Source: Candidatus Altimarinota bacterium
GTDB lineage: Bacteria > Patescibacteriota > Gracilibacteria > BD1-5 > UBA2023
DNA length: 64,000 nt
Assembly (NCBI GenBank): GCA_043741945.1
Contig: JAYTZT010000001.1
Span: 48,617 to 112,616, forward strand
Reading direction: 5' to 3'
A model generated the notes under the pieces. That model made no database searches, was not told the origin of the DNA, and was given only the letters and a program-made list of their open reading frames with translations. Position 1 is the first letter of the stretch, and the number at the start of each line of letters is the position of its first letter. Made by a program: the position numbers and the translations under genes. Positions 8,608 to 50,580 of this stretch are shown here, piece by piece.

Positions 8608-8651
8608 TTATAAGTATTGTTTATAGTTGTATATTTTAATTTTGGTAATTC

Positions 8652-13902: not shown

Positions 13903-13962
13903 TAGATTGATTTTTCTGATCCATTAGATATAATCTAATTTTATTTTTCACATACTTCATAT

Positions 13963-14451: not shown

Positions 14452-14462
14452 AAAAAATCACA

Positions 14463-18477: not shown

Positions 18478-18802
18478 ATGTCCACCTCTAGATCCACTCT
18501 CGAACATCTCACTGATTGCCTAGAACTTGTACCTGATATCACTTTCAAACCAATGATGGGAGAGTATTGTGTGTACTCCGCATGACGCATATTCGGGCTC
18601 GTATGCGACGGTACACTTTTTCTCAAGACGACTCCTGAGACAATAGAGATGTTCGAAGACAAAGAAACGCGGGCATATCCAGGATCAAAAAATACAGCAT
18701 AGGTAAATGCCGAATGGCTCGAAGATAGAGAGAGCTCGCTAATATTGTGAATATAACACTCGAAAAGCTCCCGATACCAAAACCAAAGAAAAAGAAAATC
18801 TA
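18478..18802 (+). pseudogene. TfoX N-terminal-domain protein with an in-frame TAG and a frameshift
   Basis: MSTSRSTLEHLTDCLELVPDITFKPMMGEYCVYSAGRIFGLVCDGTLFLKTTPE..RAYPGSKNTA-TAG(18700..18702)-VNAEWLEDRE. The plausible C-terminus LANIVNITLEKLPIPKPKKKKI-TAA is then only reachable by a frame change in the AGAGAGAG run near 18727..18734. Confidence 0.6.
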
Positions 18803-20140: not shown

Positions 20141-20184
20141 AAGCAGAGTATAGCAAAAAATCATAAAATGTATATACTCACTCT

Positions 20185-20787
20185 ATGTTTTTTCCATTTT
20201 TCTCACTCGCGATCTATCTCATTATCTGGTGACTCATGTCACTCGGTATACTCCCAGATATATCGAATCTCTTCGAACTCTCGAATACTCTGGGTCCATG
20301 GACACTCCTCTCTATGATGTGACTCATCATATTCGCAGAGAGCATCATCTATCTCGGATTCTACCTTCCATGACAGTTCATCGCAGTCATCCTCGTGATC
20401 AGTGGTGTACACTCATGGCAAGATATCATCCCACTCACGCTCGTATCTATCATCGCTGTGACACTCTCTGCCATAGTCAACTATACTCTCGGATCACTCT
20501 GGCGGGAGAAAAATCAGAGCATAACACCTATAGACTACAAGAAGCTCCTCCTCTCAATGATACATATAAACACACTCGCACTCGCACTCTTCGAAGCTGG
20601 CAAGATGCGATATCCGAAGTGGATCATAGCAATAGTGGGCATACTCAATCTCCCCTACTATCTCCTCATGATAGCAGTCGTGTACTACTTCCAAGATGCT
20701 GCCCGAGAGCTCGGAGAAAATCCATACTATCTCCTCATCGCCCTCATCCTCTGGTGTGGATATAGCGTATGGAAGGGTAAGAAATAG
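20185..20787 (+). CDS. DedA/VTT-domain membrane protein
   Basis: FAESIIYLGFYLPGQFIAVILVISG resembles the DedA E-x-PG-E motif. 200 aa, 4 TGA. TAG 20785..20787. Confidence 0.6.
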
Positions 20788-20789
20788 GG

Positions 20790-20936
20790 CTACTTCTTCT
20801 TTCCTTTTCTACACCTATCTGAGCAGTATATGACACTGTCCCAGATAGTTTTCCACTTTTTCCGATTCGAAAAAGGTCTCTGGCAGACAGGACAGATTTT
20901 GGATTCACGCATGACTCATCGATCGAGGATTTTCAT
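20790..20936 (-). CDS. DUF2256 zinc-ribbon protein (48 aa)
   Basis: MKILDRGVMRESKICPVCQRPFSNRKKWKTIWDSVIYCSDRCRKGKKK, i.e. the C-x2-C ... C-x3-C pattern of DUF2256. Starts 12 nt after the upstream CPF gene. Confidence 0.7.
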
Positions 20937-20947
20937 AGTTTCGTGCT

Positions 20948-22078
20948 TTAGTTTTTCATAACATAGCGTTCGACCAGTTTCCAGTAGGCAAAAAATGATG
21001 CACAGTACTGAGTCACCTCTGGAACCATGTATGGATATGGCGTCTTCGTCACTCCTGTGATATGCGAGTAGAGAATATGATCAGTGAGGTATATGGCTTC
21101 GCGTGAGAGCGAGTGGAACTCATCTCTGAGTGCTTCGATCTCTCAGACATATATCTGGATTCCCTCGATATTGTCCTTCGCGAGCGAGATCATGAACTGT
21201 ATAACTCTCTCAGATACTGGGAATCTCTCGAAGTGTGAGGGTGCGAGTACGAGGATACGATTCGCAGATATATCACTCATCCAGTCAGGACGGATCGAGT
21301 AGTCAGTATATATGATCAGTGGGATCATCGGGTCGAGCGTGACATCTGACTGAGGTGGGAGTGGTGTCGTGAGCTTGAGTGGCACATATACGAGCATATT
21401 ATCTGGTACTGTTGTCGTCCATATATCATCATATTTTCGGTCGAGAAATGTCTTTCTCTGCGTCGAGCCTGTATATTCGTTGATATTGGTCTGGATGGTG
21501 ATATACTTCTTGGAAGAAAATGCTCCAGCGTTCCACTGCCAACTACACGTATTGGATGCGAGATCACCATCGAGGAGATGATAGTACATCCACTGACTCG
21601 GCGTCCACCAGTGAGCTCCACTCATATTGCAGGCTATCCCTGCGATATACATACGCAGATGGTTGTGCATATAACCTGTCTCATACAGTGCCTCTATACT
21701 CAGATCGATAGCCTCGATCCCGGTAGTAGCATCTATGAAAGCTCTCGGCATAGCATGAGTGAGGACATCCGCCTGATCGAACCGGATATCCAGCATCATC
21801 CGATCTGTCCCGAGTCACTCCCATACTCTGAGGAAATACTCTCTCCAAGCAAGCTCCTTCAAAAATTGCTCTATCTGGTGAGGAGCAAATCCTCTACCCA
21901 GTACTCGCCGTCTGATATCTGCTATCGTGATGAATCCTCTCGATATGTACGGTGAGAGCATCGTCACATGCCCTGTGAGATGATTACGATCTCGACCATA
22001 ACTGAGAGGATCTATAGAGTCGATGCGAGCCTCGATACTGGCTCTGTCGGTTGGGAATGTATAATTGGGGATTTTCAT
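20948..22078 (-). CDS. cryptochrome/photolyase-family protein with atypical architecture (FAD-binding domain at the N-terminus)
   Basis: 376 aa. LSPYISRGFITIADI, ELAWREYFLRVW, TGIEAIDLSIEALYETGYMHNHLRMYIAG, LASNTCSWQWNAG all lie in the first ~230 aa. An unassigned tail of ~140 aa follows. Fragments 21815 and 21143 plus an extension join via TGA. Confidence 0.75.
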
Positions 22079-22080
22079 AG

Positions 22081-22422
22081 TTATTTAGACTTCATGAGAT
22101 TCAGTTTTTTCATATATTCCTTGGCATCAGCGAGAAATCCATCAAATATCTGAGTAGCACCTGAAGTGACGACTCATTTCTCTCATGATTTCCTCAGTAT
22201 CAGATACTCCGATCCACGAGATTCACAGACGAGCATCCAGAGATTTTCGAGATTCACGCGATCGGTCTGGTCGACGATGAGGTATCATCGCTTCAGTGCT
22301 CGCTCATACTCCTCTCGCTCATAGATATAGAGATGATGTGGGACAGATCGACTCCCGAGCCTGATCCCTGACTTCTTCCCTTTCGAGAGGGCATCGATAT
22401 GTTCGAGTTTCATTTTTGGCAT
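22081..22422 (-). CDS. hypothetical protein (113 aa), first gene of the CPF-DUF2256 operon
   Basis: MPKMKLEHIDALSKGKK..HLYIYEREEYERALKRGYLIVDQTDRVNLENLWMLVCESRG... TAA 22081..22083 lies 2 nt before the next ATG. A second frame is also open under table 25 but reads less protein-like. Confidence 0.45.
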
Positions 22423-22752: not shown

Positions 22753-24546
22753 ATGGACAATTCTCTCCGCAAGTGACGGATCACTCACCACTCGAACAAG
22801 ATTGGACTCTTCGATGCTGAGCGTCAATCCTTTATCAACCAGTCTGGCGATGTCGTCCTCTCTTTCCCATATCGGGACTGTATACTCGAATGAGGGATGT
22901 CCAGTGAAGAGGTAGGACGAGAAGAAAAATTTTTCCATACGACGATCGATCGAGCAGATATCGATGTTCTCAGGGAGCCAAAAGTCCTGACAGGATTTGA
23001 GCGGGTAAACTCGAGTGGAGTTCATACGATCACGGATCCGAGTGAGATAGAGTTTTTTGATGCAGAGGGCAATCTCCAGGAAGATCTCCTAATAAAATGA
23101 AACAATCTCATCGCTCTCTATTCTCTCAGGTCTCGTCTCGCAGGCAAAGTGAAACTCATCTATATAGATCCACCATACAATACTGGCAATGATGGTTTTC
23201 GCTACAATGATAGCTTCAACCAATCATCATGGCTCGTATTCATGAAAAATCGACTGGAGATAGCGAGAGAACTATTGAGGGATGATGGGGTGATATTTGT
23301 ACAGTGTGATGACAATGAACAGGCATACCTGAAAGTACTTATGGATGAAGTATTTGGGAGGGATAATTTTATAAACTGCATAGTTGCACAAATGAGCAAT
23401 TTATCGTGACACAAAATAGAACATGCAATACAATGAAGAAAATTCCCAAAAATCAAAGAATACATACTACTTTTTTCAAAAAATAAGACCGAAATAAAAT
23501 TGAAAATTCCCAAGATAAGTAAGGCAGAATGGGACGATGAATACAATCTAATTATTCCAAACATTAACGAAGAAGATATTATCGAAATTGAAGAATGGAT
23601 AGAAAATAAAGATTTTGAAAGAATAAATAAATACTTTTCAGATAAAAATATTATATCACTAAAAGAATATGCAAAAAAAAGTAACAGTGAACTAACTATA
23701 GAGTGGAAAAACTCAAATTCTTATAAGATATTTGCCAGCAAGCCAAATACTGCACTTAGAAATAAGGCAATGCAATTTGAATTCAATCAATGAATATATG
23801 CGATCCCCAATCAAAGATGAGACCTAAAAATTATTAAAACTGATTTTAATAGAGAAACCGATACAGCAAGAATAGAGCTAGTTTCAGCTCTAAAAAATTC
23901 ATCATCTTATGTCTGAGATATATGGTATGATATAGTCACGACTTGATGAGTAGCTCAAGAATGATGAGTTATCATGAAGAATGGGAAAAAACCTGAAGAT
24001 CTTATTTCGCAAATTATTCAAACTGCTACTGTAGAAGATGATATAGTTCTCGATTATCATCTCGGCTCAGGTACGACTACAGCTGTCGCACACAAGATGG
24101 GGAGACGATGGATCGGTATCGAGCAGATGGACTATATCGAGGATATCGCCAAGGTCAGGCTCCAGAAAGTGATCGAGTGAGAACAGGGTGGGATATCGAA
24201 GAGTGTGGATTGGGAATGAGGTGGAAGTTTTGTCTATATGGAACTGCGCACCTACAATATCGAATATCTCGAACGGATGGAATCTGCTCAGACCAAAGAG
24301 GATCTCCATGCTGTCTATATCGATATGGCTCGCAATGCATTTCTCCAGTTCTGGTTCGACCGTAAAAACTGGGAAAAAGATGAGAACTATCTGAAACTCA
24401 CACTCGAAGAGCAAAAGATCAAGCTCCGAGAACTCCTCGATATGAATCAGCTCTATCTCAATACGGGAGATATGTATGATGCTCGTCATAGCGTCTCTCC
24501 GCTCGATCAGTCCATAACCGAAAAATTCTATGGCAAAAAGAACTAA
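22753..24546 (+). CDS. mod: type III restriction-modification methyltransferase (Mod, N6-adenine, beta class)
   Basis: LIKGNNLIAL..KVKLIYIDPPYNTGND (motif IV), DDGVIFVQCDDNE, NGKKPEDLISQII, VLDYHLGSGTTTAVAHKMGRRWIGIE (motif I), GEQGGIS..GGGSFVYMEL. Five standard-code ORFs in frame 1 join through about 14 TGA. Confidence 0.9.
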
Positions 24547-27298
24547 AACTGCCATCAATGAGACTCTCTCAGAGTTTCTCTTTGCTCGGATCAGGGATGA
24601 TGCAGGATATGGTGAGTTCTGCCTGATTCCCCTCCCACAATATATCACAGACAATATCCATCCATCCAAATCGCTCCGTCCCTATCAGGAAGAAGCAGTG
24701 AGATATTTTATCTGGCTTTATGAAAATGAGGGGATTTCTGCTTGCAAACATCTCCTCTTCAATATGGCGACAGGAGCTGGGAAGACACTCGTTATGGCTT
24801 GTTGCATGCTCTATCTCTATGAGAGATGATATCGCAAATTCATATTCCTTGTGCATCAGGTACAGATACTCACACAGGCTCGTCGCAACTTCACAGACTA
24901 CAAGTTCGAGAAGTATCTCTTTCATCCTGATGGAATGAGTTTTTATGGAAAGCATGTGGGTACTCGGGATATCAAGACTTTTGATGAGGCAGGAGAAGAT
25001 GATATCAATATTATGTTTCTCTCGACCTCGCTTTTTTACAATCGTATCAAAGAATCAGGAGAAAACCAGCTCACGAGTGAAGACTTCTCCAAAAATGATG
25101 TCGTCATCATCGCCGATGAGGCACATAGACTCAATGTCGAAACGAGATCCAATAAAACTGAACTCGAAGAACTCCTGAACTGGGAATCCGCCGTCCAGAA
25201 CTCCATCGGTGCAAGGAAAGGCAATATACTCATCGAGTTCACAGCAACAGTCGACCTCGCCAATCGCAATATCCATGAAAAATACAAAGATAAGCTCGTA
25301 TACAAGTATGACTTCGTAGACTTCAATCGTGAAGGCTATGCGAAGAATGTCCAGTTCCTCTACAATAATGAGACACAAGTGGAGGATCAAAAGCGACTCC
25401 TCATCATCCATGCTGTCGCACTCTCTCAGTATCGCAAGATACTATTTCGAGAGCTCACGAAGAGTATCGTACATCCCGTGATCCTCGTGAAGTCCAAGAG
25501 AATCGCTGATAGTGAAGAGGATAGAAAATATTTTAATACTGTGATCAGTGATCTCTCTGTCCGAGATCTCGAAAAACTCAGAGAAGTCAAACATGATGAA
25601 TATCATCTCATAGCCAATCTCTTCGCTGAACTCGAAAATCGTGGCATCAGTCTTTCGGGTTTTGTTGCAAGTATACGAGAGGACTTTGCTCCACAAAATA
25701 CGATGATATACAATAGTAAGGTCAAGGAAAATGCATGAGCACTCTCAGATCTCGATAATCCAAAAAACAGGATGCGAGTGATATTCTCTGTAAATGCTCT
25801 CAACGAATGATGGGATGTCCTTGCACTGTATGATATCATACATTTTGATATCGGAGAAGATAAAAAAGTATCTCTCCAAGATATCCAACTCATCGGACGA
25901 GGAGCCAGATATTGTCCTTTTGATCTTCCTGAGAATTTTCAGGATGGACTGATGGGATCATACGATACGGTACGAGATCGGAGAAAGTTTGATGGAGCAC
26001 GCAGAGAATCTGCTCGTATACTCGAGACTTTTTTCTATCACTTTGTGAAGACGGGGATGTTTCTCGAAAATCTCCAAAAAGAACTGATGGGAGAAGGGAT
26101 CATCAGTGAGTGAGTGGAGAAACGAACAGTCGAGATGAAGCCACATTTCATCGCATCGGATACCTACAGGATGGGTTTTGTTCTCCAAAATCGTACAGAG
26201 AAACGATCACGAACAACTGAGGATGAGAAAAAAGATACTTTCGATAAAATAATCACTGTTTCATCATATGAGCTCCAGGCTCGTGGACTCACGGATCGTG
26301 AGGAAAATCAAAAAATAGCAGAACAAAAACCCGGAAGAATCGGATTTAGCGAAGATTTTTTCTCGATCCATATTCTCCGCAAGGCTCTTGTTCGAGCAGA
26401 AAATGGATTTTTCCGATTTGAGAACCTCAGGCAGCATATCATGGATTTATCGGGGATTGATGAATTTATCACTCGAGATCTCCAGCGGTATACGATCCAA
26501 TACTTTTTTGATGCTGAGAAGGATATATTCCGTCTCACTCCTCATGAGAAGATACAGCTCCTCATAGGTGCGATCCTCCCAGAAGTGAGAAAACATATCG
26601 ATATGACTCTCCCGAAGATCGTAGGAAGTCCGATTTTTCGTCCTGTTTCGATCTCCCATGCTTTCTCGAAACAAAAAGATCTTTTCTTTGCTTCATTCCC
26701 GATGATCAACGAGGCAACAGGAAAGCTCGAATTTGCTCGACATGATGAGCGGATGAAGCCACAGACAGATAATCCAAATATTGATCTCGAACTCGATATA
26801 TGAAGGCAAGATTGGTATGCGTATACTGAAAATTATTGAACGAGTGAAGAAAAGAAATTCGTCCGATTTATGGAAACTAAGATGGATGCACTACGAAAAA
26901 AATATCCTGATTGCGAGATATTCCTTGTAAGAAATGAACTCGAATATTGGATGTATGGACTTTCCAATGGAAAAAGATTCTCCCCAGATTACCTCATGTT
27001 TATCAGTGATATAAAAAGTAAAAAACTCTACTATCAATGTGTATTTGAGGTGAAATGATCTCATCTCGAAGAAAAAGATGAATGGAAAGAAAAAGCTCTC
27101 CGAGAAATCCGAGATGCTACAGAACTCTCATGGACAGTAGATAGAGAGAATCCGGAAAATACAAAAAATTATCAAAGATATATCGACTCTGTACAACAAC
27201 AGTGATATGAAAAAATTCGAAATATTGGATTCGGATTTTATAATTCGGAAGGTAAGGAATATGAGTTTATCGAAGAGTTTGATTCTTTACTCTTATAG
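24530..27298 (+). CDS. res: type III restriction enzyme Res subunit (SF2 helicase plus C-terminal nuclease)
   Basis: LRPYQEEAV, NMATGAGKTLVMA (Walker A), IIADEAHRL (DEAH), FTAT, and the C-terminal PD-(D/E)xK-like FSPDYLMF..CVFEVKG. Overlaps mod by 17 nt. TAG 27296..27298. Confidence 0.9.
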
Positions 27299-27311
27299 TA
27301 TCATGCCATAG

Positions 27312-27965
27312 TTCAATCATAGATTGAACTATATAAATAGATCTCTATCATTGTATTCTACGAACAAATTTCTTTTTTGTCTCCCTGATCCGCTCTATAT
27401 TAATCTTCATGAGGGTCGAGCGGACATAGGGGATAGAGTTGAGGAATGATACATGAAAGTCAAATGAAGCGGATTATACAAAAGAGATGATCAAGGAAAA
27501 GATTGGTGGAATCTCAGGGCTTGTGTGTATTATAGTGAGTTTGAAAAAGAAAAAGTGGTATGGCAAGAAATAGCTCAAAAACCTACATTTTCCTATGATA
27601 CTCAATGAGTATTTTGCAATGACACGGGTCATATTTTAACTGGGGAAAATATCAAATTTTTCGTATGATTGCTCAATTCTCAATTCTTCAAGTATATATT
27701 TCCGAGCTACTATGCAGGTGGGTGGCTATGAGAAAAATGAATACGATACAAGAGTGAATTTATGAAAGATTTTTCTATCCCAACTATCAGCTCTTCGAAT
27801 CAGTCCATCATCTCTCAGATAGAGTGACTTGTAGATCATATACTGGATATGAAAAAATGAGACTCAAAATCTGATACAAGTGATCTAGAGAATCAGATAG
27901 ATGAGCTCGTGTATCGACTGTATGATCTGACTCCTGAGGAGATCGCGGTGGTAAAGGGAAGTTAG
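27312..27965 (+). pseudogene. 5'-truncated remnant of a type IIG/Eco57I-like R-M enzyme (TaqI-like C-terminal specificity region only)
   Basis: The frame opens right after a TAG with no methyltransferase domain and no credible start. GKDWWNLRAC..KVVWQEIAQKPTFSYD..LLNSQFFKYIF..IDELVYRLYDLTPEEIAVVKGS-TAG is the typical C-terminus of that family. Confidence 0.55.
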
Positions 27966-28142
27966 ATGTATCATGCAATCCAAGTCTCAAAAATATTTTT
28001 GCAATACTCAGTGATCTGAATCGAGTATAAGTATACAAAATATACAATACTATATACTTCTTGCAAGGGATTTTTCTTTTCATATATTGATATCTGGATA
28101 TAGTGTGGATGTATTTGATTTATCTCTTCACATATAGCTTAT

Positions 28143-28973
28143 ATGGTAGATATTACTACGCTCGTACAGCGGACATTCGAAGATATCAAACTGACTGATG
28201 ATACAGGCTTCGAGTTCTGGAATGCTCGGACACTCATGACCGCTCTCGGATATAAGAAGTGGGAGAGATTTGGCCTCGTCATCCAAAAGGCGAAGGAAAA
28301 CTGTACGAATAGTGGTGGAGATATCTCTGAACATTTTCAGAGTGAAAAAGAGTTTTTCCAGGAGGCTGGAAAAACTCCAAAAGAGTGAAGACCATGAGAG
28401 AACTATCTCCTCACTCGGTATGCCTGCTATCTCATAGCACTCAATGGCGATAGTCGGCTCCCAAAGATTGCTCTGGCAAAGAGCTATTTTGCGAGTCAGA
28501 CACGCAGGCAAGAGATGATAGAGCAGAGAACTGAGGAAAATAAGAGACTCGAGGCACGACAAAAACTCAAAGCAAATGAAGCGAAAATCGAAGAAACAGT
28601 ATATGAGCGAGGTATCACACTTCCTATAGAATTCGCTACATTCAAGAATAAGTGAATCGAAGCTCTCTATAATATTTCTGTTCTTTCTCTCAAAAAGAAA
28701 CGAGGCATCCTCGAAAAAAGAGCTCTAGCAGACTTCGATACTGATGTCGAGCTCCGAGCCAAGGACTTCATCTATGCTATCACGGACCATAATATAAAGA
28801 CAAAAAATATACACGGCAAGCAGAGTCTCGAGCAAGAACTCATAGAAAATAGTAGAGCAACGAGAAAAACTCTCCTGAATCGAGGGATCACTCCAGAGAA
28901 TCTCGCTCCACAAGAAGATCTCAAACAGATAGAAAAAAGAAGAGAAAAAGAGGAGAAAATGCTAGATAAGTAG
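28143..28973 (+). CDS. dinD: DNA-damage-inducible protein D (DinD)-like protein
   Basis: FEDIKLTDDTGFEFWNARTLMTALGYKKWERFGLVIQKAKENC, LLTRYACYLIALNGD, IALAKSYFASQTR. 276 aa, 3 TGA. TAG 28971..28973. Confidence 0.75.
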
Positions 28974-29480: not shown

Positions 29481-29607
29481 AGTATGGCGTAGAGTGTTAC
29501 GAGAGTTTTCGGACGAATACTTCTTTCGCCTTTCGGATCTTCTCGATATCGACTTTTGCGAGTGTCGAGAGGATATAGGGAGTACGCCCAGACTGGAATA
29601 TGCTTTT

Positions 29608-30960
29608 ATTATGATCGACAAAGTCCCAGTAGAGATGCGTCATTGGACAGGTTTTCTCCTTCACACTATACTGACATCACTTGCAGTAGTCACTCATCTT
29701 CTCGATATAGTTGCCCCCTGAGATATACGGCTTGGTCGCGAGACGCCCGCCATCGCTATACTGGCTCATCGCCATCACATTGGGCGTGACGACCCACTCG
29801 AACGCATCAGTGTACATCTCAGCGAACCACCTGTTGACTGAGAGTGGATGATATCCCATCAGAAGTGTATAGTTCCCGACGATCATAAGGCGCTCGATAT
29901 GATGTGAGTAGTTCTCACTCTGGACTCTCTTGACTACCGTATCTATACAATTCATACCTGTGATATCTCCTATATTTTTCTCTCCATCATAGTTCCACCA
30001 ATTCTGTGGTAATGGTTCATGATGGTTGAGTGCATTCTGAGTATATATATCATTGTAGTGGTAAAGATAGAATTGCCTCATATACTCTCTCCATCCGAGA
30101 ATCTGACGGACAAAACCCTCGACACTATTAAGTGGAGCATGCCATCCTATCGCCGCATCGAGGACCTCAGACGGATGCAATATACCAAAATTGATCGCGG
30201 TCGAGAGCATGGAGTGATGCACTCTCATATCGTCCTCATACATGGCATCTTCGAGTCGTCCGAAGTCAGCATAATGATACTCCAAAAAGTACTGCAGGAG
30301 AGATAGAGCATCCGATCTCGACACTGGGAGTGAGAACGATATATCTGGGGCACCATAATACCTACGAGCCTCATCGATATAGATAGTATTCTCTGGTTTC
30401 CATCACCACGAGAGAATATGAGTATTATCGAAGTTCCGATTCTCACTATCATAGTTCCACTTTCCTCCAATAGGTTTACCATCATCCTCCATGAGGATAT
30501 TGCGAGATTTTCGCATATACCTGTAAAAAGTCTCCATAATAGGTGGCTTCTCGAATTGCTCTCTGAATTCTATATGGTTTATGAGAAACTGTCTATTCGC
30601 AAATATATGGAGTGATACTCCCTTTAGTATATATCTATCGATCTTGCGAGCGAGATACTCTTCCGATGATCTCATCAGTACAATATCTAGGATCCCTGTT
30701 TTTCCTGCAAAATCGAGGATCCCCTCTCGATAACTCTCCGACTCTATCCAGTGAGTCGTATATCCGAGTCTCTCACACTCTACCAAGAATTCTTTTGCGG
30801 TAGCGTACTCAGCGATCAGACTCCGAGTATTGAAGGTGAGATCGCCCATAGGAGAGGTGATACGAGATCCAGTGAAGAGTATGAAAAAAATATCCGTCAC
30901 TCAAGGTTCGATATAACGGGTATTACACTGATCATAGAGGATCCATTGGGCTTTTTTCAT
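29608..30960 (-). CDS. FeS-BCP / (6-4)-photolyase-type CPF protein (COG3046, PhrB-like), with its C-terminal tail frameshifted
   Basis: HSMLSTAINFGILHP, PLNSVEGFVRQILGWREYMRQFY, HHIERLMIVGNY, and candidate 4Fe-4S Cys ligands NCIDTV..SDYCKGC..KTCPMDA. After CPMDA the conserved LYWDFVDHNK...KEVFVRKLS-TAA (to 29496) continues only in another frame. The in-frame reading stops at TAA 29608..29610. Confidence 0.85.
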
Positions 30961-30969
30961 AATATTATT

Positions 30970-32511
30970 TTAGTCAAAGAGTGAGAGATTGATATCTGAT
31001 TTTTGTATTTCTTTCTTTTTTGTTTTTTTATGAGAGAATCACTTGCGACTCGCATGTTTCTCTACGATCGCCTTTTTCACTCTCGGATCGATATGTGACT
31101 TCATATTGTAGAGGATCACTCGTGCTGTTCTATTGGCCTCCTCGACATCGACTATAGGAAACGGATAGTCTCGCCCAAGGACGAAGTCATACTCGATTGA
31201 CTCCATCTCGGATATTCCCCACGGACTCGCCTGAAGGTGCTGCGGCAGTCGAGCGAGCTCTGGCAGATATGCATCCACGAAGAGACCATCACTATCCTTA
31301 TCATGGAGTTGCTTCATCGGATTATATATTCGGATCGTATTGATCCCCATAGTTCCTGACTGCATCTGGAGTTGCATATAGTGGATTCCTGGCTCATAGT
31401 CAGTGAAAAGTCCAGCAAGCCAGTGAGCAAATCTCCCCTGCCATGGCTGCATACAGGTACATGTGACAAATGATACCAGTGTGGCTCGTGCTCGGAAATT
31501 GACCCATCATATCGCCTGGAGCTGTCTCACGATTCCATCGATAAATGGAACTCCCGTTCGAGCATTCTCGATCGCTGTGATAATCTCCTCATCGTACTCG
31601 GTACGGATCGTATCATAGAGCTTGACAGCATTCATCGTCTCGAGTCTTGGCTCATCTTCAAGCTTCTGGATGAAGTGTGATTGCCAGTGCAGTCGGGAGT
31701 GGAATGCCTGAAGTGATCTGAGAAACTTGGCGTCTCACTTTCACTTGAGATCGTGCATACGAGCCCAAGTCATATGAACTACCTGTTTCAGTGATATACA
31801 TCCATAGGCGAGATATACCGATATTCGAGAACTCGCTTCCTGTCACTCTATCGGGCGACTCATACCACCCATATATTTCCGACCTCGGGATATGAGGAAT
31901 GATGCGAGTGTTTTTTGTCATTCTTTTTCTCATCAAGCCTGGATGTGAGGGTTATCCATATTGCGTTGCCAGTCATCTCCAACAATCTGAATATACCAAT
32001 ACTCCTGTCACCGAGGAGGAGGTAGTATCGGTATCATCATGCGACTCTGCCAGAGGCGAGTCCAGTCGTCACGAGATGAGAGTCGTCTCACGACTCAATT
32101 GGTCGGATACTCAGTCCATACTATATTCTTGGATCTGAGGTACTTGCCCATCATGATATCTCGATCATAGGTGATGGCATTCCCCGTCTCTTCATGAGAA
32201 AAAACACAGTCCACATCATAGACATCGAGAATATATTTCATCACATCTGATATATTGCGTTCGAATATTATGAGTGACACACCAATATTATGAAGAGACT
32301 CATTGAGATCTATGAGCGAATCCTCGATAAATTGCCTATGAAAATTTGAAAAGTCAGGAGCAAGCGTGACACGGGACTCAAAACTATAGAAAGCAATCAC
32401 TGGAATATTTTTATTTTTTCATAATATCATGGCATCAGTCAAAGGACGATGATCACTTACACGAAGATCCCGCTTGTACCAGACGAGGATGATTTTTTGT
32501 TTTTTCTGCAT
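30970..32511 (-). CDS. cryptochrome/photolyase-family protein (513 aa, subfamily not assigned)
   Basis: KIILVWYKRDLRVSDHRPL, GVVRRLSSRDDWTRLWQSRM, SRISVYLAYGCISL, FHSRLHWQSHFIQKLEDEP, TGVPFIDGIVRQL..GWVNFRARA, DYEPGIHYMQLQMQSGTMGINTIRIYNP. Fragments 32095 and 31039 plus the middle join via TGA. Confidence 0.85.
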
Positions 32512-32633
32512 GTATTTGAGCAATATAGTACGGATTCTCTATCTTTCTTCTACTTTTTTCTATTAGAAAAAGGGCTCTGGCAGGCAGGATAGATATTGGA
32601 TTCACGCATGATTCACCGATCGAGTATTTTCAT
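32457..32633 (-). pseudogene. decayed paralogue of the DUF2256 gene
   Basis: MKILDRGIMRESNIYPACQSPFSNRKK-TAG-KKDRESVLYCSNTCRKNKK... About 87 percent identical by eye to 20853..20936 over the first 84 nt. The first Cys ligand is TGT->TAT and the conserved Trp is TGG->TAG (32550..32552). Confidence 0.65.
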
Positions 32634-32640
32634 AGGAGAT

Positions 32641-33420
32641 TTATGCTTTTTTTTGCATACTTCAGACAATCTTTCGGATAAGGAATCGTGGAGTAAATCT
32701 CACAGACTCTGTGAGTATAAAGTTCATCCATCCATATACTGCGACGACCTGACCCTGCATCATCGCATAATATCCATACTCTGCGACTTCTCGGGAAGTG
32801 GGAAGTTTCCTTCACTGGAAGAGTTTTGAGCTATCCATGTGAGATACTGACGCGAATCCTGACTCAGTAGGACCAGGACAGAGTGCAGTGACCGTGACTC
32901 ATGTAGAGACGAGTTCCTCTGAGACCGCCTCAGAAAATGATAGAACATAGGCCTTCGTCGCAAAGTATACAGCCATACCAGGACCTGGCTGGAATGCTGC
33001 AGTCGATGCGAGATTCATGATACGACCATATTTTCCCTCTATCATGCTCGGGAGGAAGAGCTTCGTCATATGAGTGAGCGACTTTATATTGAGGTCGATC
33101 ATCTGACCTTCCTTTTCCCAGTTAGTATAAGAGAATTTTCAAAAATCTCAAAATCATGCATTATTAATAAGGTGATGAACTGTGAGTCAGAGAGCACTCA
33201 CTTCAGAAAATACTTCTGCGACAGCATTCGGAAGAGAGAGATCCTTCTCGATGATATGGGCTTTCACGCCATGAGTCTCTTGAAGTTCAGAAGCGAGTGT
33301 CTCGAGCTTGGGTCAACTGCGTGCTACGAGGATGAGATCATCTCAATGACGAGCTGCTATACGAGCGAGCTCGAGTCCGATACCAGAAGAAGCTCCAGTA
33401 ATGAGGGTAGTATGTGACAT
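32641..33420 (-). CDS. short-chain dehydrogenase/reductase (classical SDR)
   Basis: [18 protein letters not shown], catalytic YFATK, PGPTES. 259 aa with about 8 TGA. TAA 32641..32643. Confidence 0.9.
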
Positions 33421-33530
33421 AATAATGATCGATTATATTCATATAATATAGGGATTTACCCTTTGTTTTCAAGAATATTTTTTCTTTTTGGATATTTATC
33501 CCTATTCTCAGAGAATAGGGATTCTTATAT

Positions 33531-33839
33531 TTATTTCTTTATCCTATATCGTATCCATTCATAGAGCATATGTAGTCTCAGTATGAAAAATGCCCTAACT
33601 GAATAACGTCGGATAATTCTAAGTCAAAATACGAGTACTCCCGATGTAAGGATCATGAGCCATCCTGCTGGGATAGGTGTGAGGAGGCCTACAATCCCAA
33701 AAAGAAATAAGAATACAGCAAAAAATATCCTCACTCCAAGTGGGAGAATCATAACACGCTGATGCCAACGATGGATACGAATTCGATAAAATATCTCTCG
33801 AAATTTTTCTTTATATGTTTTGTTTCTAATATAGTTCAT
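33531..33839 (-). CDS. small PGPGW-like membrane protein
   Basis: 102 aa. FLFGIVGLLTPIPAGWLMILTSGVLVFG. ORF 33624..33839 extends through one TGA to TAA 33531..33533. Confidence 0.4.
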
Positions 33840-33853
33840 AGCTATGATAATAT

Positions 33854-33884
33854 GAAAAATCCCTTGAAGAACAAGGGATTTTTC
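33854..33884. terminator. bidirectional hairpin terminator
   Basis: GAAAAATCCCTTG-AAGAA-CAAGGGATTTTTC, immediately after the PPIase stop. Confidence 0.7.
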
Positions 33885-33887
33885 ATA

Positions 33888-34370
33888 TTATTTTGAAATT
33901 ACTATCGCTTTGATTATCTTCACTTCATCCAGTGGTTTATCATTCCTATCAGTCTTACTCGCTTCTATCTTCTCCACGATATCCATACCGGAGATAACAT
34001 GACCGAAGATCGTATGCTTACGATCGAGGAATGAAGCATCTTGTGCTGTCACGATGAAAAACTGTGAGCCATTGGTATTGCGTCCGGCATTTGCCATAGA
34101 GATCACTCACTTCTTATGCGTCAGAGTCGTATCTGAGAACTCATCTTCGAAAGCTTGATGCCAGAGACTCTTCCCACCGCTACCAGTTCCTGTAGGATCA
34201 CCTCACTGGATCATGAAGTCACGGATGACGCGGTGGAATACAATACCATCATAGTATCATTTCTCTGTGAGTCCGACGAAGTTCTCGACAGCCTTCGGGG
34301 CTGCCTGAGGGAAGAGTTCTAGAGTGATGTCTCCGAGAGTAGTAGAGAGGAGGATTTGTGGATTGGACAT
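33888..34370 (-). CDS. peptidyl-prolyl cis-trans isomerase, cyclophilin type
   Basis: [57 protein letters not shown]. 160 aa via 3 TGA. Confidence 0.95.
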
Positions 34371-34564
34371 GATTTCGAGTTTAGATATTAGAATTTAGAT
34401 TTTTGCTTTTTTTTGAGTTTTGATATTCTGTCGATGCAGTTTTCGAGAGAATTCCAAATGTTACCTAAATTGAAATTCTAGAAAACAAACCGGAAACAGA
34501 ATAAAAATGAAAAAACAAAAAGAATGTGTTTTTGTTACTTTTTAATCATAAAAAGTAAAAGATG

Positions 34565-34864
34565 TTACATGCCAGGTAAATTCAAACCCATCTGACTCAT
34601 AACTCCTTTCATTCGATTAGCTGCAATTTCCTGAGCTTTTTTCATACCCTTATTGATGGCATCAGTGATAGCTTTTTCGAGTTTTTTCTGATCTTTCATT
34701 ATAGAAGTATCCTCGATCACCGTAGAGACAACCTTGAGTTGACCATCAATCGTCACTACAACTCCATCGACTTCAGCCTCGATATGCGTATTTGAGAGCT
34801 CATCTTGGATTTTGGTGGCTTGTTGTTGGAGCTTCATGAGATCTTGTGCTTGTTTGAAATCCAT
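34565..34864 (-). CDS. YbaB/EbfC-family nucleoid-associated protein
   Basis: 99 aa. MKLQQQATKIQDEL..VEAEVDGVVVTIDGQLKV..AINKGMKKAQE..MGLNLPGM is the typical family layout. Intact in the standard code. Confidence 0.85.
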   Translation of the reverse strand: MDFKQAQDLMKLQQQATKIQDELSNTHIEAEVDGVVVTIDGQLKVVSTVIEDTSIMKDQKKLEKAITDAINKGMKKAQEIAANRMKGVMSQMGLNLPGM

Positions 34865-35011
34865 AATAATGAATATGAAAAAATAGTAAATAAAATCAGC
34901 AAAATGATAGCAAAATTCTCGGGAAAAGCAAACATTTCGATAAAATGAAATCTTAGAGTGAGAATCGATACAATCGTCAATCTAAAATTTCAGTATAGAG
35001 CGAGTCTGAGC

Positions 35012-35039
35012 TTGCAAACTCTCGCAATAGATATACTAT
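35012..35039 (+). promoter_or_regulatory. putative sigma70-type promoter of the rhodopsin gene
   Basis: TTGCAA, 16 nt, TACTAT, 31 nt upstream of ATG 35070. Sequence match only. Confidence 0.3.
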
Positions 35040-35069
35040 ATTCTTGCTTTTATTTCTTTTCTTTTTGCT

Positions 35070-35816
35070 ATGGATCTCATTAGTATTAGTCAATTTGATA
35101 TGGTGTACAACGCCTTCTCATTTGCCATCGCAGGTATGGGTGCAGCGACTCTATTTCTCTGGCTCGAGAGATCTCAGGTAGCACCCGAGTATCGTACAGC
35201 TCTCACGATCTCAGGACTTGTGACAGCAATTGCGACATATCACTATATTCGTATATTCAATAGCTGGGATGGAGCATACGAGATAATGGGCAATACTATA
35301 TCAGTTACTGGTCAGGCATTTAACCATGCATATCGATATGTAGACTGGCTCCTCACAGTACCCCTCCTCCTCATTGAGCTCATACTTGTGATGGGACTTT
35401 CACGCAAAGAAACCTACTCGAAGTCAATCTGGTTCGGAGTCATGGCGGCCCTCATGGTCATTCTCGGATATCCAGGAGAGACCGCTACTGATATCTCTAC
35501 CAAGCTCATCTGGTGGATTCTCGGGATGATACCTTTTATCTATCTCGTATACCAGCTCTTCGTCGGACTCAGTGCCTCTATCAAGAATCAACCTGCTGAG
35601 ATCAGGAGCCTCATAGTTACGGCACGATGGATCATAGTGGCAACGTGGTGTTTTTATCCTATAGTATATATCCTCCCTCTCCTCGGACTTGAGGGATCGA
35701 GTGCTATGGTAGGAGTTCAAGTCGGATATACGATCGCTGATCTCCTCGCCAAGGCAGTATTCGGTGTCTACATATACTTCATCGCCGTACGCAAATCAGA
35801 GTCAGTCAAGAGATAA
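35070..35816 (+). CDS. type-1 (microbial) rhodopsin, proteorhodopsin/xanthorhodopsin-like, DTE motif
   Basis: 248 aa, seven hydrophobic helices. Helix C RYVDWLLTVPLLLIEL gives D92, T96, E103. L100 sits at the spectral-tuning position. H58 lies in TYHYIRIF. Helix G GYTIADLLAKAVFG gives D224 and the Schiff-base Lys K228 (35751..35753). No in-frame TGA. Confidence 0.92.
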   Translation: MDLISISQFDMVYNAFSFAIAGMGAATLFLWLERSQVAPEYRTALTISGLVTAIATYHYIRIFNSWDGAYEIMGNTISVTGQAFNHAYRYVDWLLTVPLLLIELILVMGLSRKETYSKSIWFGVMAALMVILGYPGETATDISTKLIWWILGMIPFIYLVYQLFVGLSASIKNQPAEIRSLIVTARWIIVATWCFYPIVYILPLLGLEGSSAMVGVQVGYTIADLLAKAVFGVYIYFIAVRKSESVKR

Positions 35817-35829
35817 TCTCCATGATTAC

Positions 35830-35862
35830 AAAAAATCCGAGTCATATGACTCGGATTTTTTT
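35830..35862. terminator. bidirectional rho-independent terminator
   Basis: AAAAAATCCGAGTCATATGACTCGGATTTTTTT, between the convergent rhodopsin and TspO-like genes. Confidence 0.8.
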
Positions 35863-35875
35863 GATGATAGGGGTC

Positions 35876-36622
35876 TTACCAGAATTTGAGAGCCTTCAGA
35901 GTAGTTCTCTTGTTTCTCAGAGACTGTATGATATAGAATCAGATAGTGACTGCATATATGACAACTCCTCCCTGTATCTCGAGTATTGGATGTGCTATAT
36001 ATATACCGAAAAGTGTCCAGAGGAATACGCCTGATATGATATATGTTCTATATCGACACTGGAGCTCAGATACTACAAGGAGGATCACACCGAGTGCAAC
36101 TATAGCGTAGTAGAAATCTCCAATTCCACCAAATGACCAGCCCATATAGCGTATCCAAACTGTCACATTCAATGCTGTTGCCATGATAATCCAGCCAAGT
36201 GTGATATCGATACTCGATCTGATTATGATATGCGAGTCTCTCGTACGAGAGAATGTATAAACGAGCAACATGAGTATAGCGAGCATGATAACGAGGGATG
36301 TACTGATCCATAGATTGCCCCATGGGATGAGCCATAGAGCTGTGAGAGCTATAGCGAGAGCAAACCCAATAAGAGACATTGTATCAAGAGTATTTTTGGA
36401 TCTCTGGAAAAACGCTATGCATACTCCTACAATGATCCACGAGAGATAGATCAACGACCATATCGCAAAAGTAAATCCCGCAGGTGTGACTGATGTGGCA
36501 AACATAGCAGAGATATCTGCCTGTGTCATGCCTCCGATGAGATATGGGGATCCTGGTATACTCACGAGAGTCGTGAGTCCGATCGTGAGGAGAGCTGAGA
36601 TGAGTAGGAGATATCTGATCAT
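35876..36622 (-). CDS. TspO/MBR-related multi-pass membrane protein (tentative)
   Basis: 248 aa, Trp-rich. TPAGFTFAIWSLIYLSWIIVGV and LGWIIMATALNVTVWI resemble the TspO helix motifs. The start MIRYLLL is chosen downstream of the DUF1295 stop. Extends through TGA to TAA 35876..35878. Confidence 0.4.
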
Positions 36623-36687
36623 AAGAGAAAAATTATAAGCATATATAGTGTATACTTTTTTCTGAGAATACAACTCTTGATCATTCG

Positions 36688-37482
36688 CTATTTCCGAGGC
36701 CACCATGGAACGAAGACGCTCGTTTTCTCTTTGTACTCTTCCCAGTTTGGTCTGCCTGCGTATCTCGCCTCTTGGAGTGGTACGCCCGAGACGAACAGGA
36801 GTAGGATGGTGATGACGAAAAATGATACCAATCACCAATATGAATACGGCAGAGCAATGAGGCTGATCCCGAGCCAGAATACACTCTCTCCGAAATAGTT
36901 CGGATGTCGAGAGTACCGATAGAGTCAGTTCACGAATATCTCTCCAGGCTTCTTGGTCTTTATGAACTTCGATAGTTGTATATCAGAAATCATTTCGAAT
37001 ATAAGACCAAAAAACGAAATTACTGATCCAAAGATCATACACCATACTACTCTATAACTGATCTCTCATCATATGAGAAGCCATTCTGGAGTATCTATAT
37101 ATCCTAGATTCACCACCAGTATCGCTGTTGCGACCACGAGCATCAGGATCATCTGGAGCATATACACTTGGACAAATGACCGAACGACAAAATACCACCC
37201 ACTCCCCCACTCTTCCCGCCACTTGGCATATCGTGCATCTTCTCATCGCTCTTTGAGTTTTCGGAGTCAGATATGCGATACGATACGAGCTCCCCAGAGG
37301 CATACGAGTGCCGTGACGACAGTCTGTGATATCTGTAAATCTGACTGGAGATACGATATGACTGCAATAAGTACAAAGCCAAAACCCCAGAATACATCGA
37401 CGATGGAGTTATCCTTGATTCTGAGGGAATAGAGAAACAAGAGGATATATGAGATGAGGAGAGTGAGGAGGATGGAGGTCAT
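36688..37482 (-). CDS. DUF1295-family membrane protein (steroid 5-alpha-reductase / ICMT-like fold)
   Basis: NSIVDVFWGFGFV, LWGARI, GLYRYSRHPNYFGESVFWLG, VSGVPLQE, KTSVFVPW. 264 aa via about 6 TGA. TAG 36688..36690. Confidence 0.8.
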
Positions 37483-50079: not shown

Positions 50080-50187
50080 CTTGCTTTTTGAGAGAAATGT
50101 GTACTATTGCGTCGATATGAATAGAAAGGAATGTGTATAAACAATTTCAATTTTGAAATACAATAAAATATTAATCTACTAAAATAT

Positions 50188-50580
50188 ATGATAATCAAAC
50201 TTGTTGGTTCTGGAACTGAAGTTGAATCACTCGAAACCCTTGTCAAAAAAGCACTTTCTGAGCTCGCACTTGATGATGCAGTCAAAATAGAGATTACTAA
50301 TGATACCATCTATAAACTCGATCTCGGAATCACAGAAAATCCCGCACTTGCTATCGAAGAAGAATCAATCGACTTCCGAGATATGATATTCCAAGGCGAG
50401 GTACCTGCCTACGATGAAATCAAGAGTATGTTTATCTCTATCCTCGGAGATGAAGAGGATCATGGATCTGGTGGATGTGGGAGTGGTGGATGTGGAACTT
50501 GTGATACGGGTTGTGGAACAGCGGAAGAATGAACTACAAAAGAGGACAATTCATGTGCAACAGGTTGTGCAAGTCATTAG
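50188..50580 (+). CDS. thioredoxin-fold (Thioredoxin_3-like) protein lacking CxxC, with a Cys/Gly-rich C-terminal tail
   Basis: MIIKLVGSGTEVESLETLVKKAL..ITENPALAIEEE follows the small redox-active-disulfide-protein layout, but the CxxC position reads TEVE. Tail: GSGGCGSGGCGTCDTGCGTAEE-G(TGA)-TTKEDNSCATGCASH. TAG 50578..50580. Confidence 0.5.

Follow-up and report, generated by a model that had tools for sequence, protein, structure and literature searches.

A solo rhodopsin gene of the xanthorhodopsin/Gloeobacter-rhodopsin clade in a Gracilibacterium that reads UGA as glycine: a predicted proton pump with a possibly borrowed retinal

CPR bacteria are thought to ferment host-provided substrates. 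With a working light-driven proton pump, such cells would supplement this supply with light energy, and how far they depend on partners is tied directly to where the chromophore comes from. A rhodopsin gene in the 64-kb stretch of Gracilibacteria DNA analysed here (hereafter, the window) raises the question of whether such a pump is encoded and, if so, where its retinal comes from. The reading that we favor, with moderate confidence, is a solo outward proton pump of the xanthorhodopsin/Gloeobacter-rhodopsin (XR/GR) type that was acquired horizontally and most likely works with scavenged retinal.

The rhodopsin gene is an ATG-started ORF of 248 amino acids at 35070-35816 on the plus strand, without an in-frame TGA. 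Its product matched the Pfam model Bac_rhodopsin (PF01036) over residues 16-239 (E = 8.1e-40; 137 bits, cut-off 24.6), the seven-helix core of type-1 microbial rhodopsins, and has their helix 7 lysine. All residues named in the original prediction, i.e., H58, D92/T96/E103 (the DTE motif), L100, D224 and K228, were found in the translation, in which RYVDWLLTVPLLLIEL begins with residue 89 and ADLLAKAVFG with residue 223; W149 was additionally identified. H58, D92, T96 and E103 align with H62, D96, T100 and E107 of XR, and D224 and K228 (the DxxxK of helix 7) match the equivalent Asp and Lys in GR and XR. These two helix 7 residues were present in 121 of 124 relatives, which are all the full-length ones, the remaining three being truncated. 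Moreover, the key residues are unchanged across the seven Gracilibacteria orthologs.

In a comparison with PDB entries, GR ranked first (1.3e-76), followed by psXR (4e-73) and XR (1.3e-66), and the proteorhodopsin (PR) structures stood at approximately 1e-27 to 1e-30, about 50 orders of magnitude behind GR. The identity was 51% to GR, 47% to XR and 28% to a PR-type sequence. Orthologs were found in six Gracilibacteria species, and in a neighbor-joining (NJ) tree the seven Gracilibacteria sequences formed one clade (100% bootstrap) surrounded by proteobacterial XR-like pumps. The phylogenetic check proposed with the original prediction thus points to the XR/GR pump clade, to which we assign the protein by sequence. 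Membership among the proteorhodopsins was ruled out by the 28% identity, the PDB scores and the branching of PRs outside in the tree. The nearest relatives outside Gracilibacteria are mostly from Proteobacteria, and horizontal transfer probably brought the gene into a Gracilibacteria lineage; the donor cannot be named because the backbone of the tree is poorly supported.

Green absorption had been predicted from L100 by the L/Q tuning rule of PRs. The Leu is indeed present, but the rule is of little use here, since Leu at this position was invariant in all 124 relatives examined. In contrast to the Gly of GR, psXR and XR, the position equivalent to XR residue 156 is occupied by Trp149 in the window protein and by Trp in all seven Gracilibacteria orthologs. 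The Gly that marks fenestrated, antenna-containing xanthorhodopsins is therefore absent. A bulky residue at this site makes a rhodopsin non-fenestrated, and a Gly-to-Phe change in Kin4B8 abolished carotenoid binding (bioRxiv 10.1101/2022.08.24.505090). With Trp149 in place of the fenestration Gly, no carotenoid antenna is expected, and retinal would be the sole chromophore. Closure of the antenna site as a specific trait of Gracilibacteria was considered and rejected, because this Trp is common to most proteobacterial relatives (118 of 124 relatives overall).

The sequences on either side of the ORF differed in how well they matched expectation. The 'near-consensus promoter' predicted upstream was not upheld: the best candidate read from the sequence, TTGCAA (35012) and TACTAT (35039) with a 16-nt spacer (35012-35039, plus strand), matches 8 of 12 positions and lies under the promoter-scan threshold, and the region has about as many promoter-like sites as shuffled sequences do (6 vs 5.0 ± 2.0). 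It thus appears weak by sigma-70 criteria, and the stretch is kept in L003 and L005, the orthologous loci nearest to this one, and not in L006. The predicted strong terminator was confirmed by folding. This bidirectional intrinsic terminator (35830-35861), with a perfect 14-bp stem, a 4-nt loop and A-run/T-run flanks, separates the rhodopsin gene from the tspO-like gene, which runs toward it; the 64-nt stretch at 35812-35875 reaches a folding energy of -26.9 kcal/mol (z = -5.5), a value matched by 0 of 200 shuffles. A simple terminator scan did not list the hairpin, a miss probably explained by pairing of the T-run with the A-run within the stem.

The six nearest genome matches of the window were all Candidatus Gracilibacteria. 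Stop-free stretches of at least 150 codons total 36.8k amino acids with TGA as a sense codon versus 9.8k under code 11, and in ortholog comparisons TGA stood opposite Gly codons in 75 of 116 cases and opposite Trp in 2 of 116. UGA is thus read as Gly (genetic code 25) in this Gracilibacterium, and a Trp assignment, prompted by a single TGA that L003 has at the codon for the conserved Trp187, was rejected by the 75-to-2 count. No tRNA genes were found within the 64-kb window. The original prediction of an intact, monocistronic DTE pump-type rhodopsin gene in a UGA-Gly host was borne out. The window copy of the gene contains zero TGA codons, with a probability of approximately 0.02-0.04 given that TGA makes up 18% of the Gly codons in the window. 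The orthologs bear one or two TGA codons, and UGA-Gly codons were gained at Gly22 and Gly219, which indicates that the gene is translated with code 25. A very recent transfer, suggested by the zero count, is a weak proposal, given these ortholog codons and the native genes that lack TGA. Code-25 gene calling also yielded antisense ORFs at 21062-22324 (+), 33762-34322 (+), 13924-14493 (-), 50179-50577 (-) and 37073-37432 (+), which were spurious on inspection. Among the other genes called, the SecA-like g52 (55388-58144) was assigned by eye only, and the Pfam basis for the type III restriction subunit g26 is the matches of the identical gene in L001.

Comparison of gene order showed where the gene was inserted. 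The order ybaB-rhodopsin-tspO-DUF1295 is also found in L003 and L005; in L006, where the order is the same, tspO is separated from DUF1295 by approximately 3.7 kb, and L004, a short contig, breaks off within tspO. In the rhodopsin-less relatives L044 and L045, tspO lies directly beside ybaB, 61-84 bp apart. L045 and the rhodopsin-bearing L003 are equally close to the window (FtsZ 95.1% and FtsA 92.5% for each). The rhodopsin gene is thus a solo cassette of approximately 0.9 kb inserted between tspO and ybaB, present or absent at one site among close relatives. Judged against the rhodopsin-less relatives, the cassette extends approximately from 34945 to 35875 and covers the upstream region, the CDS and the terminator. 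Its left border is marked by a conserved element upstream of ybaB (34904-34932, minus strand) that the window has in common with L044 and L045. The left flank is ybaB/ebfC (99 amino acids, 34565-34864, minus strand; ORF call and Pfam), divergent from the rhodopsin gene. The right flank encodes a divergent TspO/MBR-like membrane protein (248 amino acids, 35876-36622, minus strand) and is followed by a gene for a DUF1295/steroid-5-alpha-reductase-like membrane protein (36688-37482, minus strand), which belongs to the native context outside the cassette.

The tspO-like gene is likewise native to the locus, as it occurs in rhodopsin-less relatives. Its product has no Pfam match even at E ≤ 10; homologs bear the name tryptophan-rich sensory protein or translocator protein, and some of them match PF03073. 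These names and the presence of the gene in rhodopsin-less relatives led us to reject it as a divergent Blh or other retinal enzyme. On the other side, Pfam identified four photolyase-family genes on the minus strand, i.e., a DPRP-type photolyase/cryptochrome-family gene (29497-30960), one with DNA_photolyase and FAD_binding_7 (30970-32511), a photolyase with the same two domains (18800-20164) and one with FAD_binding_7 only (20948-22078). A classical SDR gene (32641-33420, minus strand; Pfam) lies beside photolyase genes. The suggestion that this SDR is a retinol/retinal oxidoreductase found no support: it groups with the photolyase genes, matches generic SDR models only, all below cut-off, and is missing in place both from the rhodopsin-bearing L004 and from the rhodopsin-less L045. 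The neighboring light-related genes are older than the rhodopsin insertion and occur without rhodopsin, and the cassette lies inside this pre-existing set of light- and UV-related genes.

Two readings deny the protein a role in energy conservation, and we consider both highly improbable. According to one, the rhodopsin is a light sensor or a photoprotective element. The surroundings, with the four photolyase-family genes, the TspO-like gene and DUF1295, would fit such a role, and photoprotective rhodopsins have been mentioned in glacier Flavobacterium (PMC9021309). However, these neighbors predate the insertion, no transducer or signalling gene is adjacent to the monocistronic rhodopsin gene, and the protein, 51% identical to GR, a typical type-1 outward proton pump (PMC9296517), carries all the residues expected of a pump, namely DTE with its His partner as well as D224 and K228. 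According to the other, which we rate equally low, the gene is a recent non-functional passenger, whose chromophore-less apoprotein drifts toward loss. Its presence/absence polymorphism, the lack of retinal genes nearby and the zero TGA count could be explained in this way, but other genes of the window are also TGA-poor (ybaB 0/6, L25 0/10 and ftsZ 2/47 Gly codons), and the key residues are invariant in seven orthologs. Moreover, dN/dS was 0.05-0.09 over five comparisons, some of them within the solo-cassette sub-clade at dS 0.5-1.4. These ratios indicate that the orthologs evolve under strong purifying selection and, therefore, that the gene is used.

Whether the cell makes its own retinal is the more serious question. 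The search for retinal genes covered the 64-kb window of a 250-kb contig. Within it, Pfam scans of nearly all code-25 ORFs detected no blh, crt, polyprenyl-synthase or RPE65 gene, and tblastn queries with CrtI, CrtB and CrtY::Blh from the clade itself gave no match in any of the six frames (best E = 1.7), confirming the original prediction that blh and crt are absent from the 64 kb. The same type of search found no crt or blh in L003-L006. The situation differs in the sister species L007 and L008 (L043 and L008 being one contig), in which crtI, crtB and a crtY::blh fusion adjoin a rhodopsin gene whose product is 79-81% identical to that of the window. In this cluster, CrtI matches TIGR02734 with 448 bits, CrtB matches SQS_PSY (3e-44), and CrtY::Blh matches PF05834 plus PF15461 and also TIGR03753 (129 bits, cut-off 95). 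TGA accounts for 21 of the 41 Gly codons of crtI, most of them aligned with conserved Gly. Because the crt and blh genes are rich in UGA-Gly codons, recoding has not left this lineage generally incapable of retinal synthesis. Similar crt clusters were found on two further code-25 contigs, L040 and L041, and a metagenome scan with CrtI returned one extra code-25 crt contig (L041) and none from the window's sub-clade.

It is thus possible, though we consider it clearly less probable than scavenging, that the same proton pump is supplied with retinal by a crtI-crtB-crtY::blh cluster elsewhere in the genome, outside the window. The cluster of the sister species, deeply adapted to code 25, speaks for this, as do L040 and L041 and the small share of the genome that the inspected part represents. 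Against it stand the insertion of the rhodopsin gene alone in this sub-clade, the negative tblastn searches of the window and L003-L006, and the lack of a GGPP synthase beside the crt cluster in L007 or L008. Additionally, no CrtY::Blh at 61-90% identity was found in a database of 5.8 billion proteins, which includes at least two named proteins from the sub-clade MAGs LF-bin-37 and LF-bin-382; this absence is weak evidence for auxotrophy because the MAGs are incomplete and some contigs were fragmented by code 11 gene-calling (L002). The solo insertion and the database result together are circumstantial evidence of auxotrophy in the sub-clade. The external-retinal proposal of the original prediction therefore stands in part: the solo insertion favors it circumstantially, but L007 and L008 with their crtI-crtB-crtY::blh speak against an established dependence. 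For this genome, dependence on external retinal is plausible but unproven, as the genome evidence covers the 64-kb window.

Returning to the favored reading of a solo pump with scavenged retinal, we infer the following mechanism. As a member of the XR/GR family, the protein would pump protons outward, driven by light that is probably green. By analogy with GR and XR, K228 would bind retinal, D92, tuned by H58, would serve as the Schiff-base counter-ion and proton acceptor, D224 as the second counter-ion and E103 as the cytoplasmic proton donor. A host or the community would most likely be the source of scavenged retinal, as has been suggested for Saccharibacteria, since the gene arrived alone and retinal-pathway genes are not near it. 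The proton gradient could then feed the F-type ATPase reported for Gracilibacteria (PMC9166423).

Taken together, we tentatively suggest that one narrow group of Gracilibacteria shows three states of the pump: absent, solo with scavenged retinal, and beside a code-25-adapted crtI-crtB-crtY::blh cluster that could supply retinal from within the cell. If true, the group would offer a natural series for following how reliance on a host for the chromophore evolves. Provided that the cluster is functional, CPR bacteria of the L007/L008 type would make their own retinal; no report of CPR bacteria with endogenous retinal biosynthesis was found in the searchable literature. 'Borrowed retinal' also becomes testable by genome comparison and by expression of a small UGA-free gene. 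The known pump mechanism is unchanged by this locus.

A Gracilibacteria rhodopsin with a 'DTE motif' is mentioned by Jaffe et al. 2021 (PMC8406219), and a single Gracilibacteria proton-pumping rhodopsin by Chiriac et al. 2022 (PMC9166423). Judged by these descriptions, which agree in the Gracilibacteria host, the DTE motif and the predicted function, the window rhodopsin very probably belongs to the same family. The passing mentions in the two papers describe no clade placement, insertion site, polymorphism or crt-blh linkage. To these one-line mentions, our analysis adds that the Gracilibacteria pump appears to be an antenna-less member of the XR clade, that it is an accessory gene gained or lost at one precise site, and that close relatives differ in the accompanying carotenoid/retinal genes.

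Among known pumps, the protein resembles GR (PDB 6NWD) and XR (PDB 3DDL) in the DTE motif, the His partner, the tuning Leu and the helix 7 Asp/Lys, and the same outward proton pump mechanism is expected. It differs from them in its host, a code-25 CPR bacterium, and in Trp149, where G178 of GR and G156 of XR open the fenestration for a carotenoid antenna. Green-absorbing proteorhodopsin (PDB 2L6X) likewise has DTE, the His partner and the tuning Leu, but belongs to another clade (E of approximately 1e-27; 28% identity to a PR-type sequence). The nearest relatives outside Gracilibacteria, with 54-67% identity, are non-fenestrated XR-like rhodopsins of freshwater Alpha-, Beta- and Gammaproteobacteria, for example from Hyphomicrobium, Sphingomonadales and Methylopumilus MAGs. 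Their motif set is that of the window protein, and in most of them the fenestration site is occupied by Trp. Among the proteobacterial loci examined, several (e.g., L015, L017 and L024) carry crtI-crtB-crtY-blh directly downstream of the rhodopsin gene, whereas the window opsin stands alone.

Another known counterpart is the Saccharibacteria rhodopsin SacR, also a type-1 rhodopsin of the proton-pump type in a CPR host with no blh near the gene (PMC9296517). The statement in the original prediction that external retinal has been proposed for Saccharibacteria was correct, as retinal from the host or community was hypothesized for SacR by Jaffe et al. 2022 (PMC9296517). SacR has a DTS motif (PMC8406219), and in one published tree the SacRs lie between sensory rhodopsins I and II (PMC9166423), whereas the window protein has DTE and falls in the XR clade. 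Pumping and retinal uptake have been measured for SacR (PMC9296517), whereas pumping by the window rhodopsin is a prediction from its sequence. SacR differs from it, finally, in that relatives of the window organism do carry crt and blh.

The rhodopsin gene at 35070-35816 (+) starts with ATG and encodes 248 amino acids with no in-frame TGA. When the ORF and motif positions were re-read, the numbering in the original prediction proved exact throughout: residue 89 begins RYVDWLLTVPLLLIEL, residue 223 begins ADLLAKAVFG, and the key residues are H58, D92, T96, L100, E103, D224 and K228. The Pfam model Bac_rhodopsin covered residues 16-239 (E=8e-40), and no NCBIfam model matched the protein. The gene is monocistronic, with ybaB (34565-34864) divergent upstream and the gene at 35876-36622 convergent downstream. 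Between the convergent genes lies a 14-bp perfect hairpin (35830-35861), with an A-run on the near side and a U-run beyond, and the 64-nt stretch 35812-35875 folded at -26.9 kcal/mol (z=-5.5). Therefore, the strong terminator proposed behind the gene is real, and it can act bidirectionally. The proposed near-consensus promoter was not confirmed: TTGCAA-16 nt-TACTAT agrees at only 8 of 12 positions and was absent from the promoter scan list, and promoter-like sites near the gene were no more frequent in the scan than in shuffles. In both of the nearest orthologous loci, the upstream stretch holding it is conserved. Overall, the prediction of an intact DTE rhodopsin was sound in its ORF, residues and terminator.

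The order ybaB-rhodopsin-tspO-DUF1295 is shared by the two closest orthologous loci (L003 and L005) and by L006, but in L006 about 3.7 kb separates tspO from DUF1295; the short contig of L004 ends inside tspO. L005 (4058-4597) and L006 (10748-11267) have approximately 0.5 kb more between rhodopsin and tspO, a stretch absent from the window and L003. Two further Gracilibacteria, L044 and L045, carry the block ftsZ-ftsA-miaB-DUF1295-tspO-ybaB-cyclophilin-photolyases without rhodopsin, with a tspO-ybaB gap of 61-84 bp. Identity to the window was 95.1% for FtsZ and 92.5% for FtsA in rhodopsin-less L045 and rhodopsin-bearing L003 alike. In the intergenic alignment, an element at 34904-34932, upstream of ybaB, was conserved in all aligned loci, with or without rhodopsin, and the carriers had about 0.9 kb inserted between this element and the tspO end. 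Therefore, the rhodopsin is an accessory single-gene cassette, and its SDR, TspO, DUF1295 and photolyase neighbours were in place before it.

Window genes were obtained by calling ORFs under code 25 (UGA read as Gly), correcting spurious antisense calls and scanning against Pfam. Four photolyase/cryptochrome-family genes (18800-20164, 20948-22078, 29497-30960 and 30970-32511) fall within ~19 kb, comprising two DNA_photolyase plus FAD_binding_7 proteins, one DPRP-type protein and one with FAD_binding_7 only. An SDR gene (32641-33420) follows, with cyclophilin and ybaB nearby. The convergent gene at 35876-36622 encodes a 248-aa TspO-like membrane protein without a Pfam match; homologs of this protein carry the name tryptophan-rich sensory protein or translocator protein, with PF03073 matches in some. 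Beyond it lie a DUF1295 gene, miaB, ftsA and ftsZ. Together, the photolyase, TspO-like, DUF1295 and SDR genes (18800-22078 and 29497-37482) look like a light/UV-stress block older than the rhodopsin insertion. The speculation that the SDR is a retinol/retinal oxidoreductase found no support, as only generic SDR models matched, all below cut-off (best, mycolate reductase, 166 bits; cut-off 380), and its presence is unlinked to rhodopsin, being missing at the same place from rhodopsin-bearing L004 and rhodopsin-less L045.

The two photolyase pairs are separated by 22753-28973, where the methylase (22753-24546) and ResIII helicase (24530-27298) of a type III restriction-modification system are accompanied by a Bro-N protein and a TaqI_C-like gene; this region looks like a mobile insertion, because L006 lacks these genes there. 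An IS1595/ISXO2-like transposase fragment (61946-62491; DDE_Tnp_IS1595, 2.7e-19) contains eight in-frame TGA codons. Large surface proteins combining SLH domains with Ig-like or PKD repeats (1347-4076 and 10467-12116) could be episymbiont proteins for attachment or an S-layer. The window also holds type IV pilus-like ATPase and platform genes and housekeeping genes (CysS, ArgS, DprA, MurG, LigA, trigger factor, TruB and signal peptidase). With TGA as sense, long antisense ORFs at 21062-22324(+), 33762-34322(+), 13924-14493(-), 50179-50577(-) and 37073-37432(+) lie opposite real photolyase-like, cyclophilin, NUDIX, thioredoxin-like and DUF1295 genes, respectively, making longest-ORF calling unreliable in this genome.

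The UGA=Gly code was verified at the codon level: in orthologous genes of the window and related loci, TGA stood opposite Gly codons in 75 of 116 cases and opposite Trp in 2. Stop-free stretches of 150 codons or more totalled 36.8k residues with TGA read as sense and 9.8k with TGA as a stop. When one genome per species was scanned, close rhodopsin orthologs (79-94% identical) turned up in six MAGs, each bearing the title Candidatus Gracilibacteria, followed by matches at 54-64% from Alpha-, Beta- and Gammaproteobacteria and a few Verrucomicrobiota. When the window gene was compared with each of five orthologs, dN/dS was 0.05-0.09 (dS 0.5-2.1). Orthologs have gained UGA-Gly codons, for example, Gly22 and Gly219 in L007, and the gene is therefore translated under the code of its host. 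TGA accounts for 0 of 17 Gly codons in the window rhodopsin versus 18% in 29 confident window genes (P about 0.02-0.04), to which we give little weight because several native genes are equally TGA-poor. In L003 (LF-bin-37), codon 187 is TGA where all other orthologs have TGG for a conserved Trp187; under code 25 this replaces Trp by Gly in helix F, unless it is a sequencing error.

The rhodopsins of two sister species, L007 (MAG GFS_7187; 81% identical to the window's) and L008/L043 (one contig of MAG GL52_DN_56; 79%), occupy a different gene context. Directly beside them are genes for a 487-aa CrtI-family desaturase (TIGR02734, 448 bits), a 279-aa phytoene/squalene-synthase-family protein (SQS_PSY, 3e-44) and a 672-aa fusion of lycopene cyclase with Brp/Blh beta-carotene 15,15'-dioxygenase (PF05834, 5e-36; PF15461, 4e-32; TIGR03753, 129 bits, cut-off 95). 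This crtI-crtB-crtY::blh segment of ~4.4 kb (L007, 5223-9643; L008, 5251-9671) has opposite orientations relative to rhodopsin in the two sister genomes, and no GGPP synthase was found adjoining it in either locus. Its outer flanking genes differ between the two, so the cluster and rhodopsin may move as a unit. The cluster is not contamination, each gene having 3-21 in-frame TGA codons. In the L007 CrtI (8180-9643), TGA supplies 21 of 41 Gly codons, mostly aligned with Gly in standard-code homologs. The share is about 18% in window genes, and the rhodopsins have only 0-2 such codons, suggesting that the crt genes have resided in the recoded lineage much longer than the rhodopsin. Several proteobacterial relatives of the rhodopsin have crtI-crtB-crtY-blh downstream, only 25-29% identical to the Gracilibacteria genes, and the opsin and crt genes of L007 and L008 therefore have separate histories. 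CrtY::Blh fusions are common, and the few named or inspected examples adjoin PR (proteorhodopsin) on Bacteroidota-type contigs. Related crt clusters occur on two more code-25 contigs, L040 and L041. In L040 (4737-9919; JGI 3300033553, GC 29%), crtY::blh, crtB and crtI, 62-78% identical to those of L007, adjoin an NDQ-motif (sodium-pump-type) rhodopsin, which fits the 'Absconditabacteria NDQ' rhodopsin mentioned in Jaffe et al. 2021 (PMC8406219).

The predicted lack of blh and crt genes in the 64-kb window, the part of the 250,475-bp contig searched in this genome, was borne out by Pfam scans of its ORFs, which revealed no phytoene synthase, phytoene desaturase, lycopene cyclase, Blh, RPE65-type oxygenase or polyprenyl synthase, and by tblastn, in which the L007 crt-blh proteins had no match in the window or L003-L006. 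Moreover, no CrtY::Blh 61-90% identical to that of L007 was found in a 5.8-billion-protein database that includes named Gracilibacteria proteins encoded on LF-bin-37 and LF-bin-382 contigs, a result to be read with the incompleteness of MAGs and the calling of some contigs under code 11 in mind. These results favour, short of proof, real absence of crt-blh from the window's sub-clade. Saccharibacteria rhodopsins with a DTS motif pump protons and take up external retinal, and no blh was found there (Jaffe et al. 2022, PMC9296517). External supply of retinal in the window organism is a reasonable hypothesis with slightly better than even chances, not a finding.

The association of rhodopsin with Gracilibacteria is already in print: a DTE-motif rhodopsin of this group is mentioned in Jaffe et al. 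2021 (PMC8406219), and a single proton pump of this type is counted for Gracilibacteria in Chiriac et al. 2022 (PMC9166423), where NADH dehydrogenase and F-type ATPase are also reported from the group. No paper connecting rhodopsins of Gracilibacteria or Patescibacteria with blh or crt genes came up in full-text literature searches. Modestly new here are the exact insertion site and presence/absence polymorphism, the code-25-adapted crt-blh clusters of the sister species, and the xanthorhodopsin-clade placement with its missing antenna site.

A PDB-wide search with the window rhodopsin returned Gloeobacter rhodopsin (GR, 1.3e-76), psXR (4e-73), Salinibacter xanthorhodopsin (XR, 1.3e-66) and Kin4B8 (1.6e-61), and proteorhodopsins only at 1e-27 to 1e-30. 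Identity fell from 51% with GR and 47% with XR to 41% with an actinobacterial sequence and 28% with one of PR type. The seven Gracilibacteria rhodopsins formed one clade in an NJ tree (100% bootstrap), placed within a mostly proteobacterial XR-like group adjoining GR and XR, with the Actinomycetota group and PR outside; backbone support was low, and therefore the donor cannot be named. The H, D, T, L and E positions were invariant in 124 of 124 compared sequences, and the helix-7 D and K were present in all full-length ones (121; the other three are truncated). L100, from which green absorption had been predicted, is present, but the PR-style argument from Leu adds little because this residue never varies. 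Green absorption is nevertheless likely by analogy, since GR absorbs near 540 nm.

In xanthorhodopsins, Gly at the XR-156 position opens the fenestration that lets a carotenoid antenna touch retinal; a bulky residue there leaves the protein non-fenestrated, and Gly-to-Phe in Kin4B8 abolished carotenoid binding (bioRxiv 10.1101/2022.08.24.505090). Unlike XR (Gly156) and GR (Gly178), the window rhodopsin has Trp149 at the equivalent position, as does every Gracilibacteria ortholog (Trp in 118 of 124 compared sequences), which marks it as a predicted XR-family pump with retinal as sole chromophore. Within this well-understood family of pumps the protein is nothing out of the ordinary; what is unusual is its host.
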